Source of the DNA: a virus
Taxonomy: Duplodnaviria > Heunggongvirae > Uroviricota > Caudoviricetes
IMG/VR virus record: IMGVR_UViG_2850773344_000006
Strand: one strand, 5' to 3'
DNA: 35,652 nt
Part shown: one piece after another, positions 16,585 through 27,246 of the stretch
Layout: each line of letters opens with the position of its first letter
How positions within the stretch are numbered: the stretch's first letter is position 1
Notes under the pieces: model-generated
Told to the model about the DNA's origin: nothing
Databases searched by the model: none
Seen by the model: only the letters and a program-made list of their open reading frames with translations
Translations under genes and position numbers: made by a program

Positions 16585-16937
16585 CTAGGTGCCATTAATC
16601 AGTTTTTGCAGTGGTCGGTAATACACACCGTCAACGTTATCCGCTGAGTTACGGCCGGTATCCGATATCGCCATCCCTGACAGCCCGTGTCCCGAAGGTG
16701 CGCAAAATCTCCACGAAACGGTGTTACTGCCGGGGCTGTAATACATTTCATGGCCATACCGTACATCCTGTACCCCCTCTGTTCGATATTTATAGCGGGC
16801 ATCGAAGTTTCCGTCATTTAACGGAATTACCTGTCCGTTAACAGTGAACACTATGCTGTTATCCGGGTTTCTCTGGCTGAAAAAATGCCAGCCTGAATCA
16901 TCGCCAAGCTCTGCAACAACAGGCCTGGATGGATTAC
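16585..16937 (-). pseudogene. 3' fragment of a tail fibre gene truncated by IS600 copy 2
   Basis: The track ORF 16585..16953 starts inside the IS600 end; the phage-derived part begins at the IS boundary (16937). Confidence 0.5.
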
Positions 16938-17884
16938 TGAGGTGTACTGGCAATAGCGGACACTACCATTTGTTCTTTTTTTAAGCAGCCATCTGATGAT
17001 ATTTTTCCCTGAAGGCTGCCGGGGATATTCCCCAGACGAGAGTGACGACGCTGACGATTGTAGAAAATCTCAATGTATTCCCGTATTACTGAGATGGCTT
17101 CATCCCGGTTATTAAAACGATAGTGGCTCAGGCTCTCATTTTTCAGCGTTCCCCAGAAGCTTTCCATCGGAGCGTTGTCGTAACAGTTACCTTTACGCGA
17201 CATTGATGTTTTCAGACCAGACTGCTCCTGTATGACCCGGTAATCGTATGCGCAGTACTGTGAACCTCGATCAGAGTGGTGGATTAGCCCGGCAGGTGGG
17301 CGCTGGCTCCTGAGCGCCATAAACAGGGCTTTACCTGTCAGCTCTTTTGTCATGCGCTCTCCCATGGCGTAGCCGACAATTTCGCACGTATAAACATCTT
17401 TGATGCCAGCGAGGTACAACCATCCCTCCTGTGTGGCAACATACGTCAGGTCCGCCACCCAGACCTGATTTGGTGCTGTAGGAGCGAACGTCTGGTTCAG
17501 CAGATTTGGCGCAACTGGCAGATTGTGGTTCGGGTTCGTAGTCGCTCTGAACTTGCGTTTCTGCTTACAGCGTAGCCTCAGCTCCTTACGAAGACGTGCC
17601 AGTCGGTCACGACCAACGATGATGCCATTCTCTGCCAGCTCCGTCTGGAGCCGCCGGGTTCCATATGTTTCGCGAGTGCGGATATGTGCCACCTTAATCT
17701 CCAGTTTTAGCCGCTCATCACTTTGTTTTCTGTCTGAGGGTTCATGCTGTACCCAGTTGTAATAACCGCTCCTGGATACACCAAATACCTGACACATCGC
17801 TTCAATGGGAAATTGTTGTCGCCATTGTTCGATTAACGCGTATTTTTCAGCGACTCCTGTGCAAAATACGCTGTTGCTTTTTTT
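16938..17884 (-). mobile_element. IS600, copy 2, truncated (orfA side replaced by IS1 B)
   Basis: End TGAGGTGTACTGG at 16938; identity to other copies stops at the T7 run at 17878-17884, where IS1 begins. Confidence 0.85.
16981..17797 (-). pseudogene. IS600 orfB, frameshifted (2-bp loss at the same site as copy 1)
   Basis: gccggggatattcccc versus gccggggagatattcccc in the intact copies; C-terminus becomes ...RLGNIPGSLQGKISSDG... Confidence 0.8.
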
Positions 17885-19635: not shown

Positions 19636-21240
19636 CTAGGTCTCCTTATAAACATCAGCCATCACATTGACCAGCCTATCAACCTCGACCTCTTTAGCAT
19701 AACGGTCGTAAGTAATAGACCCTGAACTATGCCCCATGATCGCCTGTGCATACGCCAACTCGACCCCATGTTGTTTTAACTGGGTCGCAACTGTATGTCT
19801 AAACGAGTGAAACGCTAAGCCGCTACGGTCTACGAGGACTTTAGGCAACAACGTCCGATTAAACCATTTACTCACCTGCTCACCGTAACCGTTCTTCATG
19901 AGACGCAGACCATCGAACACCATAGCGTCATCACCGTCAGCGCCTCTACGGGTCTCTACAAGCGCCATAAAGTCAGCCAATATAAAACCATAGGCCCCAT
20001 CGACCAGAGGCACACAGCGGTCACTATGAGCGTTCTTGATGCTCTTACCGGGTAGACTACTATCGTCTTCATTGATATGAATATAAACGGTTCCCGCCTC
20101 AGTGGTCCTGACGTCTTTGACCTGTAGTTGGGCTATTTCATTGAGTCTCGCCCCAGTGATAGCAGCCAAGGCGGTAACATAATAATGATACGGCTTACCA
20201 GAGGTCTTCTGAGAGTATGCCTTAGCTGCGACCAGTAGTTGCCCCACCTGCTCCGTAGAGAAGGCGTTACGGGCCCCTGAGGCTTTACGCTGAGGGACTT
20301 TAAGCTCCAGACCCTCAGTCATGTTCTTTTTAATCAAGTCATTGCGCACAACCCACCTAAAGACAGCAGCCATCTTAATAAGATACTTGTTGTTGATGGT
20401 AACGACATCCAGACAATCTGTCTTATCTTCACGGCTCAACAGGTCAGCAAGTGGGACATCCTTGAAGCGCTGCTTACGGTTCCTAGGTAACTGCTGGAGC
20501 ACATCACGGACCCTAAGCATGTCAGCCCTGTTAGCGTCTGCATTGAGACCCAGATGGTCGAATATTTCGATTAACGCAGCGTGTGACGCCTTGTTTTCCC
20601 TTAAGGTTGCAGGCTTCCAGTTCTGATAGTTCTCCGCTTCGTATTGCTCAAAGAGGCTCGCTATGGTAATGCTAGGCGTAACTTCTGGTTTTACTTCTGG
20701 AGCATTAACAGATAGGGACACAGAGTCTGCTTGGTTATCTTGCCTATCAATATCATTAAAAAGATCGACGTAATCTATCAGAGGCTGACTGTCTCCCGCT
20801 TCGATACGCCTCATACAGGCTTTTAGCACCTTCAGGGCCTCATTGATGTAACGATGCTGGTCAATGCTTAGCGGCTCACTAGCCAGAGCATCGGTAAGGC
20901 TCTCACCAAGTTCTCCGTATTGGTCCCGGTAGATATCCCTCATGTCAGGCTCAAAGAGATCTGAACGGCCCATAGACAGTTCACACTCAGCGATGTCCTT
21001 AAGGTGTTCCCTCATTTCCTCATAGGTAGCGTTGGGTCTGTCTGCGTGTATTGCCTTGAGTGCTGCCTTTATGTGCCTTGAGTAAGCCATAGCGGTGCGT
21101 CTATCCTTGGTCCGTAATGATATTGAGGTCATTCTATCATTGTTTGATTGTCTGACCCTAAGACGGAAGTAGTAGACGCCGTTACGCTGGTAGAGATAGT
21201 AGACTGCTGGAAGTTTGTGACTACTGGATAGCTGAATCAT
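19636..21240 (-). CDS. int: Tyrosine recombinase / integrase (534 aa)
   Basis: C-terminal catalytic region with ...GARLNEIAQL..., HSFRHTVATQL and ...GHSSGSITYDRYAKE (R, HxxR, Y signature); long N-terminal domain. Confidence 0.8.
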   Translation of the reverse strand: MIQLSSSHKLPAVYYLYQRNGVYYFRLRVRQSNNDRMTSISLRTKDRRTAMAYSRHIKAALKAIHADRPNATYEEMREHLKDIAECELSMGRSDLFEPDMRDIYRDQYGELGESLTDALASEPLSIDQHRYINEALKVLKACMRRIEAGDSQPLIDYVDLFNDIDRQDNQADSVSLSVNAPEVKPEVTPSITIASLFEQYEAENYQNWKPATLRENKASHAALIEIFDHLGLNADANRADMLRVRDVLQQLPRNRKQRFKDVPLADLLSREDKTDCLDVVTINNKYLIKMAAVFRWVVRNDLIKKNMTEGLELKVPQRKASGARNAFSTEQVGQLLVAAKAYSQKTSGKPYHYYVTALAAITGARLNEIAQLQVKDVRTTEAGTVYIHINEDDSSLPGKSIKNAHSDRCVPLVDGAYGFILADFMALVETRRGADGDDAMVFDGLRLMKNGYGEQVSKWFNRTLLPKVLVDRSGLAFHSFRHTVATQLKQHGVELAYAQAIMGHSSGSITYDRYAKEVEVDRLVNVMADVYKET

Positions 21241-21354
21241 ATGTCTGTATGCCCTGAGAGGGTTACACAGTGGGTTACAGTAAGTAACTCTGCAAGGAGG
21301 CTTAAAGCCGTATCCCTTAGGATTCAGTAGGTTGGAGTACTTTAAGAAAGGTCA

Positions 21355-21429
<75 letters not shown>

Positions 21430-21432
21430 ATA

Positions 21433-21508
<76 letters not shown>

Positions 21509-21510
21509 GC

Positions 21511-21587
21511 TGGCCCACCACCGAGGACTCGAACCTCGCACCGTCAACTTAGAAGGTTGATGCTCTATCCGGATGAGCTAGTGGTGG
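21511..21587 (-). tRNA. tRNA-Arg (anticodon UCU), with an atypical C1:G72 acceptor pair
   Basis: Reverse complement CCACCACTAGCTCATCCGGATAGAGCATCAACCTTCTAAGTTGACGGTGCGAGGTTCGAGTCCTCGGTGGTGGGCCA; all four stems pair. Confidence 0.65.
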
Positions 21588-21588
21588 T

Positions 21589-21665
21589 TGGTGGCCCTTG
21601 CTGGACTTGAACCAGCGACCTGGCGATTATGAGTCGCTCGCTCTGACCAACTGAGCTAAAGGGCC
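21589..21665 (-). tRNA. tRNA with CAU anticodon, probably Ile2 (lysidine type) rather than elongator Met
   Basis: Reverse complement GGCCCTTTAGCTCAGTTGGTCAGAGCGAGCGACTCATAATCGCCAGGTCGCTGGTTCAAGTCCAGCAAGGGCCACCA; resembles the remembered E. coli ileX more than metT. Confidence 0.65.
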
Positions 21666-21752
21666 GGAGGCAGAATAATAACCATATGTCATCACATCTG
21701 CAAACTCATCTGACCACCAGCGCGTTTAACGCCCTGTGCCATTTTTCAGGCA

Positions 21753-21780
21753 CAAAAAAACCCGCATAAAGCGGGTTCTT
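21753..21780. terminator. Bidirectional intrinsic terminator (ACCCGC-ataaa-GCGGGT flanked by A-run and T-run)
   Basis: acaaaaaaacccgcataaagcgggttcttt; follows the antirepressor gene on the minus strand. Confidence 0.65.
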
Positions 21781-22426
21781 TCAAGTGTCCATGTCTGCTA
21801 TTCGCCTCGCGATACAGCTTTGCGAAGCTTACCGGAATTGAAGCAGTTTATGTGCAAAAATGCAAGAACTTTTTTAAAGCTGCATCAACCTTTCCACCAG
21901 TTTATCTCTGCGAACAACAAACCAACCATTGGCTCTCGCCAGTTCCAGCCATGACTCAAGGGAAATAACAATATCATCATCCCGTAACTGAATTGTGGAA
22001 ACAGTGACACCGCCTCTCTGATAACAGAGAACTCGCGTGTCGTAACTTTTCTGGCATGAAACTGGCGTTGACGGATCCCTTTGACTGAAATAGCAGTCTT
22101 CCAGTTTTTCGAACACATCCCACGCCTGATCGGTTTCGAGCATTTTGCCGTGGCGTGCTGCGCCTCGTTCTGTCCAGAGGATGAGGGAGCGGGCTTTGGG
22201 TGAAACTGGATTTTGTGAGTAGTTTAAAGCGACCCGCAATTCTTTAAGGTCATTACCAACAACTTTGAAAAAGTGTTTCCCTTCAACGAAGCGTACTTTG
22301 TTCTCATGATGATTCTGGCGAATACGCACCGGCTCAGTGCCGTAAAGCTGCGCCAAAAGTTCGGTGGTAATAACAGGAATCTGTGAGGTGTACTGGCAAT
22401 AGCGGACACTACCATTTGTTCTTTTT

Positions 22427-23245
22427 TTAAGCAGCCATCTGATGATATTTTTCCCTGAAGGCTGCCGGGGAGATATTCCCCAGACGAGAGTGACGACGCT
22501 GACGATTGTAGAAAATCTCAATGTATTCCCGTATTACTGAGATGGCTTCATCCCGGTTATTAAAACGATAGTGGCTCAGGCTCTCATTTTTCAGCGTTCC
22601 CCAGAAGCTTTCCATCGGAGCGTTGTCGTAACAGTTACCTTTACGCGACATTGATGTTTTCAGACCAGACTGCTCCTGTATGACCCGGTAATCGTATGCG
22701 CAGTACTGTGAACCTCGATCAGAGTGGTGGATTAGCCCGGCAGGTGGGCGCTGGCTCCTGAGCGCCATAAACAGGGCTTTACCTGTCAGCTCTTTTGTCA
22801 TGCGCTCTCCCATGGCGTAACCGACAATTTCGCACGTATAAACATCTTTGATGCCAGCGAGGTACAACCATCCCTCCTGTGTGGCAACATACGTCAGGTC
22901 CGCCACCCAGACCTGATTTGGTGCTGTAGGAGCGAACGTCTGGTTCAGCAGATTTGGCGCAACTGGCAGATTGTGGTTCGGGTTCGTAGTCGCTCTGAAC
23001 TTGCGTTTCTGCTTACAGCGTAGCCTCAGCTCCTTACGAAGACGTGCCAGTCGGTCACGACCAACGATGATGCCATTCTCTGCCAGCTCCGTCTGGAGCC
23101 GCCGGGTTCCATATGTTTCGCGAGTGCGGATATGTGCCACCTTAATCTCCGGTTTTAGCCGCTCATCACTTTGTTTTCTGTCTGAGGGTTCATGCTGTAC
23201 CCAGTTGTAATAACCGCTCCTGGATACACCAAATACCTGACACAT
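22427..23245 (-). CDS. IS600 orfB transposase (DDE), intact
   Basis: 272 aa ending ...RLGNISPAAFREKYHQMAA. Confidence 0.9.
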   Translation of the reverse strand: MCQVFGVSRSGYYNWVQHEPSDRKQSDERLKPEIKVAHIRTRETYGTRRLQTELAENGIIVGRDRLARLRKELRLRCKQKRKFRATTNPNHNLPVAPNLLNQTFAPTAPNQVWVADLTYVATQEGWLYLAGIKDVYTCEIVGYAMGERMTKELTGKALFMALRSQRPPAGLIHHSDRGSQYCAYDYRVIQEQSGLKTSMSRKGNCYDNAPMESFWGTLKNESLSHYRFNNRDEAISVIREYIEIFYNRQRRHSRLGNISPAAFREKYHQMAA

Positions 23246-23280
23246 CGCTTCAATGGGAAATTGTTGTCGCCATTGTTCGA

Positions 23281-23583
23281 TTAACGCGTATTTTTCAGCG
23301 ACTCCTGTGCAAAATACGCTGTTGCTTTTTTTAATATATCTCGCTCAAGGCGAGCTTCATTTAACGCCTTACGCAGTTGCAGAATTTCAGATTCCAGTTC
23401 AGCCACCGTGCGGGAACCAGGAGTACCGAGCCCTTTTCTGGCGGCGGTAACCCATTGTCCTAAAGTGCCTTCAGGAAGAGATAATCGGGAAGCGCCTTCA
23501 CTGATCGAAAGTTGATTTTCAAGAACCGTTCTGACAGCTTCGGCTTTGAACTCTTTAGAGTAACGTTGGGTTTTTCTGCTCAT
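23281..23583 (-). CDS. IS600 orfA
   Basis: 100-aa HTH protein. Confidence 0.9.
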   Translation of the reverse strand: MSRKTQRYSKEFKAEAVRTVLENQLSISEGASRLSLPEGTLGQWVTAARKGLGTPGSRTVAELESEILQLRKALNEARLERDILKKATAYFAQESLKNTR

Positions 23584-23860
23584 TATTAGCTCCTTCTGAT
23601 GCCATTCTATTTCAGGAAGGAGTGTCCGTTAAACTCAGGCTACCTCACTGGTTATGGGTGATCGGGGAGAGAGTTTCAACAGAGATTTGAGTGGTCATAA
23701 CGATAACTCCGTACATTTGGAAATTATCGCCACCGACGACGCCAATCGAACTGGTGGCGAACTGTGCAGGGTTGGCGTAACCGGGTACGGAAACCGGCGA
23801 GCCTTTCGGCTCCCCCACACAGCCCGCCATAAATCGCGAATGTGACTGTGCAAACGATAT

Positions 23861-23881
23861 GAAAAAAGACGCGGGCGCGTC
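23861..23881 (-). terminator. Intrinsic terminator about 100 bp downstream of the Q-like gene (tR'-like position)
   Basis: GACGCG-gg-CGCGTC stem followed by a T6 run on the minus strand (plus strand gaaaaaagacgcgggcgcgtc). Confidence 0.6.
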
Positions 23882-23970
23882 TCATATCGCTCCGTAAACA
23901 TCCGGGACGCCAATCCCGACGCCAGATTTTGCTGGCGCGTGAGGAATATAGCCCCGGATAACAGATTGAG

Positions 23971-24525
23971 TCAACAAACGGTTTTTAGATCCCCGGAAGA
24001 GAATGCATCACGCATCGGTAGATAGAGCATATATTCAGCAAGATTTAGCCATACATCTACCCGACTGCAGCACGTCCGGAAACACCACTCAGGGTGTGCG
24101 TCATTCAGCAATTCAGCCATTTTACGCTTAGTCATCCCCCGCCCTTCATACCGTTGCCGGAGGACACTAATCAATCCAGGATGCTCTGCCAGCACCTCAC
24201 TTATGACTCTATCAATACATAACGCCTCTGCATCAGTACAATGCGCCAGCCAGGTCTTTTGCTTGCCATTGATCATCTCTCGCAAAAACGCTTCCAGCTC
24301 AGGTTTCTCTATTCCCGCTTTTTTCATCCTGCGCAGGGCTTCATTGACGGCTGTTTTCGTCAATTTTTTGGATGCCAGCAACTGGTTAAACATATTTCCC
24401 GTCTTACCGCCGCCAATATACGACCAGCGCCCCCACATGCGCAGTTTTCCCTGAATCCAGACACTTTCCAGCGTGGTGAGACGAAGGTGTTCCCCGCTTT
24501 TGCCTGTATTTGTTGGGTAAATCAT
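23971..24525 (-). CDS. Putative late-gene antiterminator (Q-like), 184 aa from the ATG overlapping the upstream stop
   Basis: Position after nin-like genes and before a terminator fits lambdoid Q; ATG at 24525 overlaps the ybcO-like stop (ATGA). Family call by synteny and weak memory only. Confidence 0.45.
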   Translation of the reverse strand: MIYPTNTGKSGEHLRLTTLESVWIQGKLRMWGRWSYIGGGKTGNMFNQLLASKKLTKTAVNEALRRMKKAGIEKPELEAFLREMINGKQKTWLAHCTDAEALCIDRVISEVLAEHPGLISVLRQRYEGRGMTKRKMAELLNDAHPEWCFRTCCSRVDVWLNLAEYMLYLPMRDAFSSGDLKTVC

Positions 24526-25544: not shown

Positions 25545-25820
25545 GTGGCTTCCATTTCCATCAGATGTCCTTCCTGCTCCGCTACTGAAGGCGTGGTGCG
25601 TAACGGCAAAAGCACTGCCGGACATCAGCGCTATCTCTGCTCTCATTGCCGTAAAACATGGCAACTACAGTTCACTTACACCGCCTCTCAGCCCGGTACG
25701 CACCAGAAAATCATTGATATGGCCATGAATGGCGTCGGATGTCGCGCCAGTGCACGCATTATGGGCGTTGGCCTCAACACGGTTTTACGTCACTTAAAAA
25801 ACTCAGGCCGCAGTCGGTAA
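25545..25820 (+). CDS. insA: IS1 InsA
   Basis: 91-aa ORF. Confidence 0.9.
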
Positions 25821-26242
25821 CCTCGCGCATACAACCGGGCAGTGATGTGATTGTCTGCGCTGAAATGGACGAACATTGGGGCTACGTCGGTGCTAAATCA
25901 CGTCAGCGCTGGCTGTTTTACGCGTATGACAGGATACGGAGGACGGTTGTGGCGCACGTCTTCGGTGAACGCACTCTGGCCACACTGGAGCGTCTTCTGA
26001 GCCTGCTGTCGGCCTTTGAGGTCGTGGTATGGATGACGGATGGCTGTCCGCTGTATGAATCACGCCTGAAGGGAAAGCTGCACGTTATCAGCAAGCGTTA
26101 CACTCAGCGCATTGAGCGACATAATCTGAATCTGAGACAACATCTGGCAAGGCTGGGACGGAAGTCACTGTCGTTCTCAAAATCGGTGGAGCTGCATGAC
26201 AAGGTCATCGGGCATTATCTGAACATAAAACACTATCAGTAA
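25739..26242 (+). CDS. insB: IS1 InsB
   Basis: 167-aa ORF. Confidence 0.9.
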
Positions 26243-26747: not shown

Positions 26748-26903
26748 TTACTCCTCAGGTTCGTAAGCTGTGAAGACAGCGACCTCCGTCTGGCCGGTTC
26801 GGATTCGTACCTCGCAGAGGTCTTTCCTCGTTACCAGTGCCGTCACTATGACGGTTAAACAGATGACGATCAGGGCGATTAACATCGCCTTTTGCTGCTT
26901 CAT
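26748..26903 (-). CDS. hokD: Hok/Gef-family small membrane toxin (51 aa)
   Basis: MKQQKAMLIALIVICLTVIVTALVTRKDLCEVRIRTGQTEVAVFTAYEPEE; the track ORF is extended upstream in frame. Confidence 0.85.
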   Translation of the reverse strand: MKQQKAMLIALIVICLTVIVTALVTRKDLCEVRIRTGQTEVAVFTAYEPEE

Positions 26904-27246
26904 AGCCTGCTTCTCCTTGCCTTTCGGCACGTAAGAGGCTAACCTACATTTGTGAGACATAGATTGGGCCTCAGATTAATGTTAAGCGTCTTGCAGGACG
27001 CGTAATGTTAACTGGGGCTTTTCTCTGTCTGCCTTACAGTGGCATGCCCGAGGCAGACAGCCTCAAGCACCCGCAGCAATCTTACCGATACCGATAAGAA
27101 AACGCTATTTTTTATTGCCAGCACCTTCTATCCAGGCTAATTTATCTGCGTCAGAACGGCGCAATGCGCTCGCCTGAGATACGTTTACTTGCCATGGTAA
27201 CAACAGGTAACGGCAATTGCTGTTTCTGTTTTGTTTCCTTCAAAAA

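Follow-up and report, generated by a model that had tools for sequence, protein, structure and literature searches.

The locus described here raises the question of which promoter and terminator are acted on by the product of its Q-like gene. The gene (23971..24525) lies in a stretch of 35,652 nucleotides of the class Caudoviricetes (IMG/VR record IMGVR_UViG_2850773344_000006), hereafter referred to as the window, and is followed within about a hundred nucleotides by a predicted promoter and by a hairpin with a run of six T residues. A preliminary description had taken these two signals for the late promoter/terminator pair that Q modifies, and had made the expression of everything to the left (an antirepressor gene, tRNA genes and possibly an integrase gene) dependent on Q. 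The lambdoid late-control architecture of the prophage was borne out by our analysis, while the pair itself was probably misassigned: it appears to belong to a small RNA (sRNA), IsrK, within an IsrK/C4/antirepressor cassette. The locus is likely to represent the Q/late-promoter junction of a degraded lambdoid prophage, in which a portable antirepressor cassette separates the Q gene from the late promoter that belongs to it. The Q-like gene and all features described between it and the tRNA cluster, this cluster included, are located on the minus strand; coordinates are those of the window.

A remote homologue of Q21 in the position of Q

The open reading frame (ORF) of the Q-like gene is intact, from an ATG at 24525 to a TGA stop codon at 23973..23971, and encodes a protein of 184 amino acids. 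Residues 1-175 matched positions 1-175 of the 176 of the DUF1133 profile (PF06576; E = 2.7e-108, 359.5 bits against a cutoff of 23.1). The profile search for antitermination families suggested by the preliminary description was also positive: a match to Phage_antitermQ (PF06530) was marginal in Pfam (27.6 bits, cutoff 26), and the protein was assigned to the PHROG family phrog_753, annotated as ‘anti-termination protein Q-like’ (E = 1.4e-80). When a profile of 32 homologues was searched against the PDB, structures of the Q protein of phage 21 (Q21) were retrieved (E = 5e-5), with both ends colinear, and hhalign aligned residues 18-182 with residues 6-152 of Q21 over 134 columns (94% probability, E = 1.4e-7). 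The nine top Foldseek matches in the PDB were all Q21 (E = 8e-4 to 1e-2, TM 0.50-0.68), the next having E > 1. The AlphaFold2 model used for this comparison was poor (predicted local distance difference test, pLDDT, of only 55.8), being based on a shallow alignment of 32 sequences at 77-89% identity, and served as weak support only.

The DUF1133 protein differs from Q21 in several respects. Identity between the two is just 17-27%, about 30 extra residues are found in the DUF1133 protein near positions 40-85 of the hhalign alignment, and a 12-residue loop of Q21 (RKMLCRGGGRIQ) is placed opposite a gap. The HT[loop]H DNA-binding motif described for Q21 by Yin et al., with its minor-groove loop, was not found in the aligned DUF1133 protein, a plain helix-turn-helix being implied instead. 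The family is small: an exhaustive search of representative sequences gave 72 clusters at 50% identity, mostly fragments, and no deeper alignment could be built. NCBIfam has a model for neither DUF1133 nor Q21, and one genomics paper labels a DUF1133 protein as ‘Q antiterminator (HHPred)’.

Genomic context pointed in the same direction. Nin-type genes coding for YbcO and DUF1367 proteins (Pfam) are located upstream of the Q-like gene, whose ATG overlaps the stop codon of the ybcO-like gene, and this is the position of Q; in an intact relative from E. coli CFS3292, genes for holin, lysozyme, Rz and terminase are found downstream of the DUF1133 gene. Genes of this family were detected in 1764 of 5426 complete E. 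coli genomes, approximately one third. Homology and position together support the identification of the DUF1133 protein as a distant homologue of Q21-type antiterminators, in agreement with the Q-like assignment of the preliminary description.

The promoter and terminator next to the Q-like gene

A promoter was predicted between the Q-like gene and the hairpin, as anticipated (TTGACT-18-TATATT, 23974..23945). Its -35 hexamer TTGACT (23974..23969), which includes the TGA stop codon of the Q-like gene, is separated by an 18-nt spacer from the -10 hexamer TATATT (23950..23945), and 10 of the 12 positions agree with the consensus. It is a homologue of the isrK promoter of Gifsy-1, the activity of which has been demonstrated (Hershko-Shalev et al. 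2016, PMC4825925), and the two do not differ in the -10 hexamer or in the 3' spacer half. Transcription would start at the G at 23938, and the segment 23862..23938 matched the IsrK family (Rfam RF01394) over positions 1-77 of the 77-nt model (75.6 bits against a gathering score of 50, E = 1e-14). Folding predicted a first hairpin at 23938..23919 and a second one exposing the loop TTGGCGT (b1, 23913..23907). The sequence CAAAAT, at +8..+13, sits in an invariant hairpin loop and was present in every genomic context; immediately after the start, at +2..+7, the sequence is CGCCAG, which does not resemble a -10 hexamer.

The IsrK-like sRNA ends in an intrinsic terminator composed of a hairpin with a 7-bp GC stem (23883..23866; GAGACGCG-CCC-GCGTCTT, or GACGCGGGCGCGTC on the plus strand) and a T6 tract (23867..23862). 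Hairpin and T tract together span 88-110 nt past the stop codon of the Q-like gene, on the same strand; the preliminary description had placed them correctly. By raw count, terminator-like sites in the region were not above chance (3 against 1.2 expected). The site is considered real because it coincides with the 3' end of the full-length isrK match, and because the four stem versions found among homologues all have a hairpin followed by T6. It is nonetheless modest, and to call it strong was an overstatement: its predicted stability is -9.7 kcal/mol (-7 to -10 kcal/mol for the four stem versions), compared with the far stronger -16 to -19 kcal/mol of a second terminator located farther downstream in the window and of its homologues. 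A modest terminator is consistent with the leakiness reported for Gifsy-1. When ten IsrK variants were analyzed with RNAalifold, the two 5' hairpins were recovered and the terminator was missed, since MAFFT misregistered the four stems; the variants were then folded singly.

A C4-type antisense RNA and its two targets

A match to the a1/b1 target hairpins of C4 (23899..23951; Rfam RF03163, 52.2 bits, gathering score 46.7) overlaps both the -10 hexamer and the 5' portion of IsrK. Past the terminator, a C4-type antisense RNA was identified (23750..23834; RF01695, 77.6 bits against 45), the counterpart of the STnc1160 or ‘orf45’ region of Gifsy-1, STnc1160 being reported to be processed. The C4 loop ACGCCAA (23778..23772) is complementary both to b1 and to a second site, b2 (TTGGCGT, 23739..23745), which lies 29 nt before the ribosome-binding site (GGAG, 23710..23707) of a gene for an ORF6N antirepressor (ant).

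Both pairings were supported by covariation across an alignment of 13 cassette variants. The 7 bp formed by b1 with the C4 loop and the 7 bp formed by the C4 loop with b2 were 100% paired, each with 4 pairs changed on both sides, and none of 500 shuffles matched the observed score in either case, whereas slid controls gave just 14-45% pairing. The three elements change jointly, in four specificity types (TTGGCGT, TTAGCAC, TTGGAAC and TTAGGAAC). Moreover, the mutations G28A/G31A in IsrK and C162U/C159U in ‘orf45’, which de-repress the translation of anrP in Gifsy-1 (PMC4825925), map to the b1 and C4 loops. According to the same study, the isrK promoter of Gifsy-1 directs the synthesis of IsrK, and partial read-through of the IsrK terminator extends the transcript into orf45-anrP; this long RNA is translationally silent until acted on by IsrK, and AnrP then de-represses the antQ operon (PMC4825925).

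The antirepressor gene of the window is split. Its first 17 codons (MTTQISVETLSPITHNQ, 23648..23698), recognized by alignment with intact relatives, are cut by an insertion sequence (IS) from the remainder (21874..22383, with a TAA stop codon at 21876..21874), which encodes the ORF6N domain (Pfam, E = 5.6e-18) and the C-terminal part and is 96-97% identical to the relatives. The intact 185-residue Ant of one of them (locus L029) matched the PHROG annotation ‘anti-repressor’ (E = 1e-90). An orf45-like ORF (23645..23830, with its ATG at 23830, inside the C4 RNA) was also observed in frame with the start of ant, with no intervening stop codon; in Gifsy-1, orf45 is a separate ORF of 45 codons (PMC4825925). 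As ant is disrupted by the IS, its control by RNA is moot in the window.

Phages P1 and P7 provide a second point of comparison; their immI region, with the c4 antisense RNA, icd and ant, is said to have been described by Citron and Schuster in 1990. In the c4-ant logic of these phages, the C4 loop and its targets change in coordination between specificity types. The window resembles immI in that the C4-type RNA would come from the same transcript as its targets, with a1/b1 upstream and b2 before the regulated gene, and joint changes of loop and target define specificity types as they do between P1 and P7. It differs from P1 in being a lambdoid prophage, in the a1/b1 segment, which ends in an intrinsic terminator and would be released as the Hfq-binding sRNA IsrK, and in the antirepressor, which is of the ORF6N kind.

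Spread of the cassette and independence from the type of Q

The isrK, C4 and c4-a1b1 trio scored above the Rfam gathering thresholds in the window, in Gifsy-1, in a Stx2a phage and in CFS3292. The antQ-isrK-orf45-anrP-isrJ region of Gifsy-1 (Hershko-Shalev et al. 2016, PMC4825925) shares with the window a cassette about 80% identical, which has the same IsrK hairpins and -10 hexamer, includes a C4-like RNA, codes for an antirepressor of the ORF6N kind and is placed directly behind a Q gene and followed, past the antirepressor gene, by a second short terminated RNA and a tRNA gene. Unlike the window, however, Gifsy-1 has an upstream Q of the unrelated Q82 family (AntQ, PF06323). In the Stx2a phage the cassette is located in the nin region, after a Dam methylase gene and upstream of NinG and of a Q belonging to PF06530; in phages of this kind it is upstream of Q and separate from PR'. 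Copies behind the DUF1133 gene, behind the Q82-type antQ and behind the Dam methylase gene do not differ from one another in the -10 hexamer, in the 3' spacer half or in the first ~55 transcribed nucleotides, so the IsrK promoter and start region track no type of Q.

The same picture emerged from the phage collection, where the cassette, whose core reads TATATTCC-5 N-CGCCAGC, was found in 170 records and a DUF1133 gene in only 32. The pair at 23974..23862 is neither specific to, nor co-inherited with, one type of Q. Two records, L017 (1289..1645 and 4551..4900) and L030, contain two IsrK/C4/ant copies each, one in the nin region and the other after Q. Both copies share the b-loop specificity TTGGCGT, so that one C4 RNA could control the two of them.

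A candidate late unit behind the antirepressor gene

A set of 80 IMG/VR loci coding for proteins 87-96% identical to the one in the window, together with CFS3292, was sorted into two classes. In class B (50 loci) the protein has 180 residues and there is no cassette; the stop codon is followed by a conserved unit of ~110 nt (GCTTGATTTTTTACGCATAAACTGCTTCAATTCCGGTATGCTTCGCAAAGCTGTATCGCGAGG...) with a strong terminator at its end, beyond which the sequence is highly variable (cargo genes, tRNAs). Class A comprises the other 30 IMG/VR loci and CFS3292, with a 184-residue protein and the cassette at the identical junction; the window belongs to this class. In a BLAST comparison, the class B unit aligned at 79-85% identity with 21875..21752 of the window, right behind the stop codon of ant. 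This unit was present in 80 of the 81 close DUF1133 loci. It is directly adjacent to the gene in 50, whereas in 30 the cassette comes in between and the unit lies at +800 to +1000 nt; the lone exception is a contig that ends first. In the phage collection it occurred in 7 records, all of them (7/7) with a DUF1133 gene adjoining.

In the window, the unit contains a candidate late promoter of the pR' kind (21837..21865), with a -35 hexamer TTGCAT (21865..21860), a 17-nt spacer TTTTGCACATAAACTGC (21859..21843), a sequence found once in the window, and a -10-like hexamer TTCAAT (21842..21837). Five nucleotides farther on, TAAGCT (21826..21831) is a candidate sigma-dependent pause element, equal to the first six bases of TAAGCTG in phage 21; TA-N-GCT is kept in every variant of the element, with position 3 alone varying. 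A leader of ~78 nt is predicted (21754..21832; -30.7 kcal/mol, z -3.5), ending in a tR'-like terminator (21782..21754; -17.2 kcal/mol, z -6.6) formed by the stem AACCCGC/GCGGGTT (21777..21759) and a T run to 21754, of which relatives carry compensatory stem variants. Directly behind the terminator lies a cluster of tRNA genes for Met(CAT), Arg(TCT), Thr(TGT) and Gly(TCC) (21355..21665; ARAGORN, Rfam); in the intact relative L029 the same cluster is followed by a holin gene. Between the terminator and tRNA-Met, a promoter-like sequence TTTGCA-18-TATTAT (21675..21704) was observed. Stx phages offer a similar case, a tRNA promoter of its own having been mapped there in the interval from tR' to stx2 (Sy et al., PMC7547250).

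The plan of the unit is kept in distant DUF1133 phages, namely Rac-SA53 (70% identical), Providencia (43%) and Edwardsiella (33%). In all three, the stop codon lies in or beside TTGAyw, the spacer reads TTTTAC(G/C)(C/G)A(T/A)(A/G)AA, the -10 is followed ~5 nt on by TAAGAT, TATGCT or TACGCT, and a terminator is found at the end. The sequence GCT(T/G)CGC(A/G)AAGCTG comes next in Providencia and Edwardsiella and is absent from Rac-SA53. A Klebsiella KpF5 homologue (63% identical) fits less well, keeping only the stop codon in TTGAAT, the terminator and the tRNA-Thr layout. Conservation of the spacer over such distances suggests a protein-binding site, and no copy of this spacer motif was found at the IsrK promoter. 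A record deposited as ‘Actinobacillus phage vB_Apl-pPE4’ (PP818812.1), whose host assignment seems doubtful, is 92-96% identical to the window segment that includes the Q gene, the cassette and the unit.

For comparison, the anatomy of the late promoter of phage 21 was taken from its annotated genome record: a -35 TTGACA, a Q-binding element (QBE) with ATTGAGCA and AATGAGCA in the spacer, a -10, the start, and the TAAGCTG pause at +2, followed by a terminator, tRNA-Asn and tRNA-Thr, and a holin gene. The likeness to phage 21 (Q21; PF06530; PDB 6P18 and 6JNX) extends from the protein, a remote homologue whose low-confidence model has Q21 as its sole significant fold matches and whose gene is placed after nin genes, to the downstream unit, with its -35 near the Q stop codon in class B, spacer element, weak -10, TAAGCT, short leader, terminator, tRNAs and, in relatives, holin gene. 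There are also differences, as the spacer TTTTGCACATAAACTGC is unrelated to ATTGAGCA and AATGAGCA, the leader is longer (~78 nt vs. ~50 nt) and a cassette of 0.85 kb parts Q from the unit in the window. The concept of a constitutive promoter after Q that yields a short terminated RNA, as known from PR'-tR'/StxS of Stx phages (Sy et al. 2020, PMC7547250) and from 6S of lambda, also fits 21865..21754, and Stx phages likewise have tRNA genes and cargo between tR' and the lysis genes; StxS, which ends 258 nt from PR', has no sequence relationship with the unit of the window. Given this anatomy, a pR'/tR' layout in sequence terms, 21865..21754 is most likely the cognate late unit of the DUF1133 Q.

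Recognition helix and promoter spacer

The segment of the DUF1133 protein aligned to the recognition helix of Q21 occurs in three variants, each with its own -35/spacer sequence in the downstream unit. Helix A1 (RTCCSRVDVWLNL) was found with TTGCAT TTTTGCAC... in 14 loci and in the window, helix A2 (ATCRNRIDAWLKM) with TTGCAA TTTTAGCC... in 17 loci, and helix B (STCEKRIANWLAV) with TTGATT TTTTACGC... in 49 loci, and the association between helix and -35/spacer variant was perfect; the three spacer variants are distinguished by GCAC, AGCC and ACGC. The cassette, on the other hand, reassorts between A1 and A2, with the same b1 and terminator types on both, as does the 3' half of the unit, and the IsrK promoter is common to all A1 and A2 loci. 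The association is suggestive of a cognate Q/QBE pair. The class A-specific C-terminus of the protein was also considered as a marker of specificity for the IsrK promoter, and was rejected because the downstream unit is present in both classes and the IsrK promoters of A1 and A2 are identical.

Proposed mechanism and alternative explanations

On the basis of these results, the following scheme is proposed. The constitutive promoter behind the Q-like gene would give rise to the 77-nt IsrK, ending at a leaky terminator, and read-through transcripts would carry the C4-type RNA, whose loop could pair with b1 in IsrK and with b2 before the ribosome-binding site of ant. Synthesis of the antirepressor would then be gated by RNA-RNA pairing and not by Q, a mode of control for which there is experimental proof in isrK-orf45-anrP of Gifsy-1 and c4-ant of P1/P7. 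The DUF1133 protein would load on RNA polymerase paused just past its cognate promoter and render it terminator-resistant; the unit so modified would be the one after ant, 21865..21754, with the spacer as candidate QBE, the tRNAs coming next and, in intact relatives, the lysis genes. The dependence of everything leftward on Q, as put forward in the preliminary description, would then apply to the tRNAs and to what once followed them. It would not extend to the integrase, which belongs to a different element, nor to the antirepressor, which is most likely controlled by RNA, given that the pair at 23974..23862 is that of IsrK and that a separate pR'-like unit accompanies DUF1133 genes.

Among the alternatives, the original proposal fares best, although we regard it as unlikely. 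In this case 23974..23945 would be pR' and 23883..23862 tR', ant, the tRNAs and all downstream genes would depend on Q, and IsrK would be a terminated pR' leader like 6S of lambda or StxS. The promoter does begin within the stop codon of Q, which is the position of pR' in phage 21, exactly this junction was found in 30 of 30 class A loci, and the -10-like CAAAAT is available at +8..+13. In addition, the 5' half of the IsrK promoter spacer (TCAATCTGT) is restricted to copies behind DUF1133, with different sequences in Gifsy-1 and in nin-region copies, and IsrK has been described as the product of an antitermination-regulated promoter (Sy et al., PMC7547250). Against this, the -10, the start region, both hairpins and CAAAAT itself are identical behind a Q82-type Q or Dam, which leaves no specificity for a type of Q; the IsrK promoter has neither a pause-like hexamer at +2 nor the DUF1133 spacer motif; its terminator is weak, and read-through in Gifsy-1 is described with no demonstrated requirement for Q. 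Finally, DUF1133 genes are invariably accompanied by another unit, farther downstream, that has the layout of pR'.

A variant of this idea appears rather improbable, namely that Q would have two loading sites, one in the downstream unit and one at the isrK promoter, the latter by way of the half-spacer specific to the junction. A positive loop would result, Q raising Ant and Ant leading to more de-repression. It draws on the invariance of TCAATCTGT across the 30 class A loci, which holds even where the remainder of the cassette is just 76% identical. Yet A1 and A2 share one and the same half-spacer while having different downstream units, and the half-spacer is dissimilar to the spacer of the unit; its lack of variation can be accounted for by the fact that it overlaps the end of the Q reading frame and by descent from one ancestral junction.

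That the DUF1133 protein is instead a sigma-region-4-like DNA-binding regulator, for example an activator of 21865..21837, with the terminated leader as a mere sRNA gene, would suit the poor -10-like hexamer, the missing HT[loop]H loop and the insertion of ~30 residues, but is highly improbable in view of the near full-length colinear homology with Q21, which includes the N-terminal WGxW segment and the C-terminal helix, of TA-N-GCT, found where phage 21 has its pause element, and of the strong terminator maintained through compensatory changes between promoter and late genes in all relatives, which an antiterminator needs and an activator does not.

Several observations weigh against the proposed scheme itself, in addition to the description of IsrK by Sy et al. 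mentioned above. At the level of the protein, confidence in the predicted structure is low (pLDDT 56), and a literature search on DUF1133, and on Rac-SA53, turned up no functional data, only the HHPred-based label. As regards the downstream unit, the -10-like TTCAAT lacks the usual A at position 2, a consensus scan reported neither the promoter 21865..21837 nor the terminator, no clear direct repeat of the kind seen in the Q21-binding element was found in the spacer, and the start and pause are placed by analogy with phage 21 alone. The association between helix and spacer could also reflect two or three clonal backbones swapping only the cassette. With these points taken into account, we still consider a cassette lodged between Q and its own late promoter the likely explanation.

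A broader proposal, which joins two statements, is held more tentatively, at somewhat less than even confidence. According to it, DUF1133 proteins would form a functionally distinct sub-family of Q21-like antiterminators, with a plain helix-turn-helix reading the spacer TTTT-NNNN-ATAAAC and at least three matched helix/spacer pairs, and at the same time IsrK/C4/Ant would be an induction cassette that is portable, regulates itself and has entered phages with unrelated Q proteins (DUF1133, and the Q82 type of Gifsy-1) at precisely the Q|pR' junction, IsrJ being the terminated pR' leader of the Gifsy-1 Q. The unit that follows the antirepressor gene in Gifsy-1 is isrJ, which has no sequence relation to the unit of the window. 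It was located directly past anrP (3380..3500 of the Gifsy-1 record L003, minus strand), preceded by TTGCAA-17-TATATT and followed by tRNA-Arg. In at least seven other matching phage records, isrJ-like sequences adjoin or run into the 3' ends of genes that carry a Q-like annotation. For the Q82-type AntQ, IsrJ may hence play the part of the terminated pR' leader, and in Gifsy-1 too the cassette seems to have come to lie between Q and its leader by insertion.

State of the prophage in the window

The system is defunct in the window, with an IS in ant and with all that lay past tRNA-Gly replaced by an element bearing an integrase. The insertion in ant is an IS3-family element of 1264 bp (22384..23647) with ends TGAGG...CCTCA and rve/HTH_21 domains in its transposase ORF, which we take to be IS600-like. 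It splits the gene after codon 17 and is flanked by a 3-bp target duplication, CAG, at 23650..23648 and 22383..22381; its limits were defined from the break in homology with the relatives L001 and L004, with a 3-bp overlap. Further copies of the same transposase were observed at 301..1350, 16934..17797 and 34834..35652.

Homology to the intact relatives stops at the 3' end of tRNA-Gly (21355), and no lysis or structural late genes were found past it in the window. A gene for a tyrosine integrase of 534 residues (Phage_integrase and DUF6538; 19636..21355) abuts the 3' end of tRNA-Gly(TCC) at this very point. In E. coli chromosomes the same integrase adjoins a tRNA-Gly gene. The integrase belongs to a different element, and an integration or recombination event at tRNA-Gly probably cost the prophage its late region; the window was searched for a further copy of the 3' end of tRNA-Gly, as an att repeat of the integrase element, and none was found. 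On the other side of the locus, an IS1 copy (insA/insB-like ORFs, 25545..26242) is located just upstream of the DUF1367 gene, and IS3-family elements at 31443..33794; through these insertions, the early region that would express Q is disrupted as well. A hok/sok-type locus is present in the nin region (26898..27072; Rfam sok, 118 bits), as in CFS3292 and Rac-SA53.

Besides IS1 and the additional IS3-family copies, genes for a metal ABC transporter and remnants of tail fibres are present in the wider window, and the Shigella sRNA CssrB (2630..2812) adjoins an IpaH-type gene (LRR and NEL domains, E3 ligase; 2941..4596). The window is a Shigella-type chromosomal region that carries a decayed lambdoid prophage.

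Implications for enterobacterial prophages

All the components of the locus belong to kinds already described, and their arrangement matters little for the window itself, since the prophage is dead, with an IS in ant and its late genes gone. The arrangement has more bearing on the annotation of related elements: as judged from the ~90 loci surveyed for cassette and Q, taking the first promoter and terminator after Q for pR' and tR' is unsafe in enterobacterial prophages, where an RNA-controlled antirepressor cassette may intervene. If IsrJ and the unit of the window are indeed leader RNAs of pR', they would be further members of the class of sRNAs derived from antitermination that was proposed for StxS. 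DUF1133 genes, for their part, would offer natural matched variants of Q helix and promoter spacer for the specificity of Q loading.

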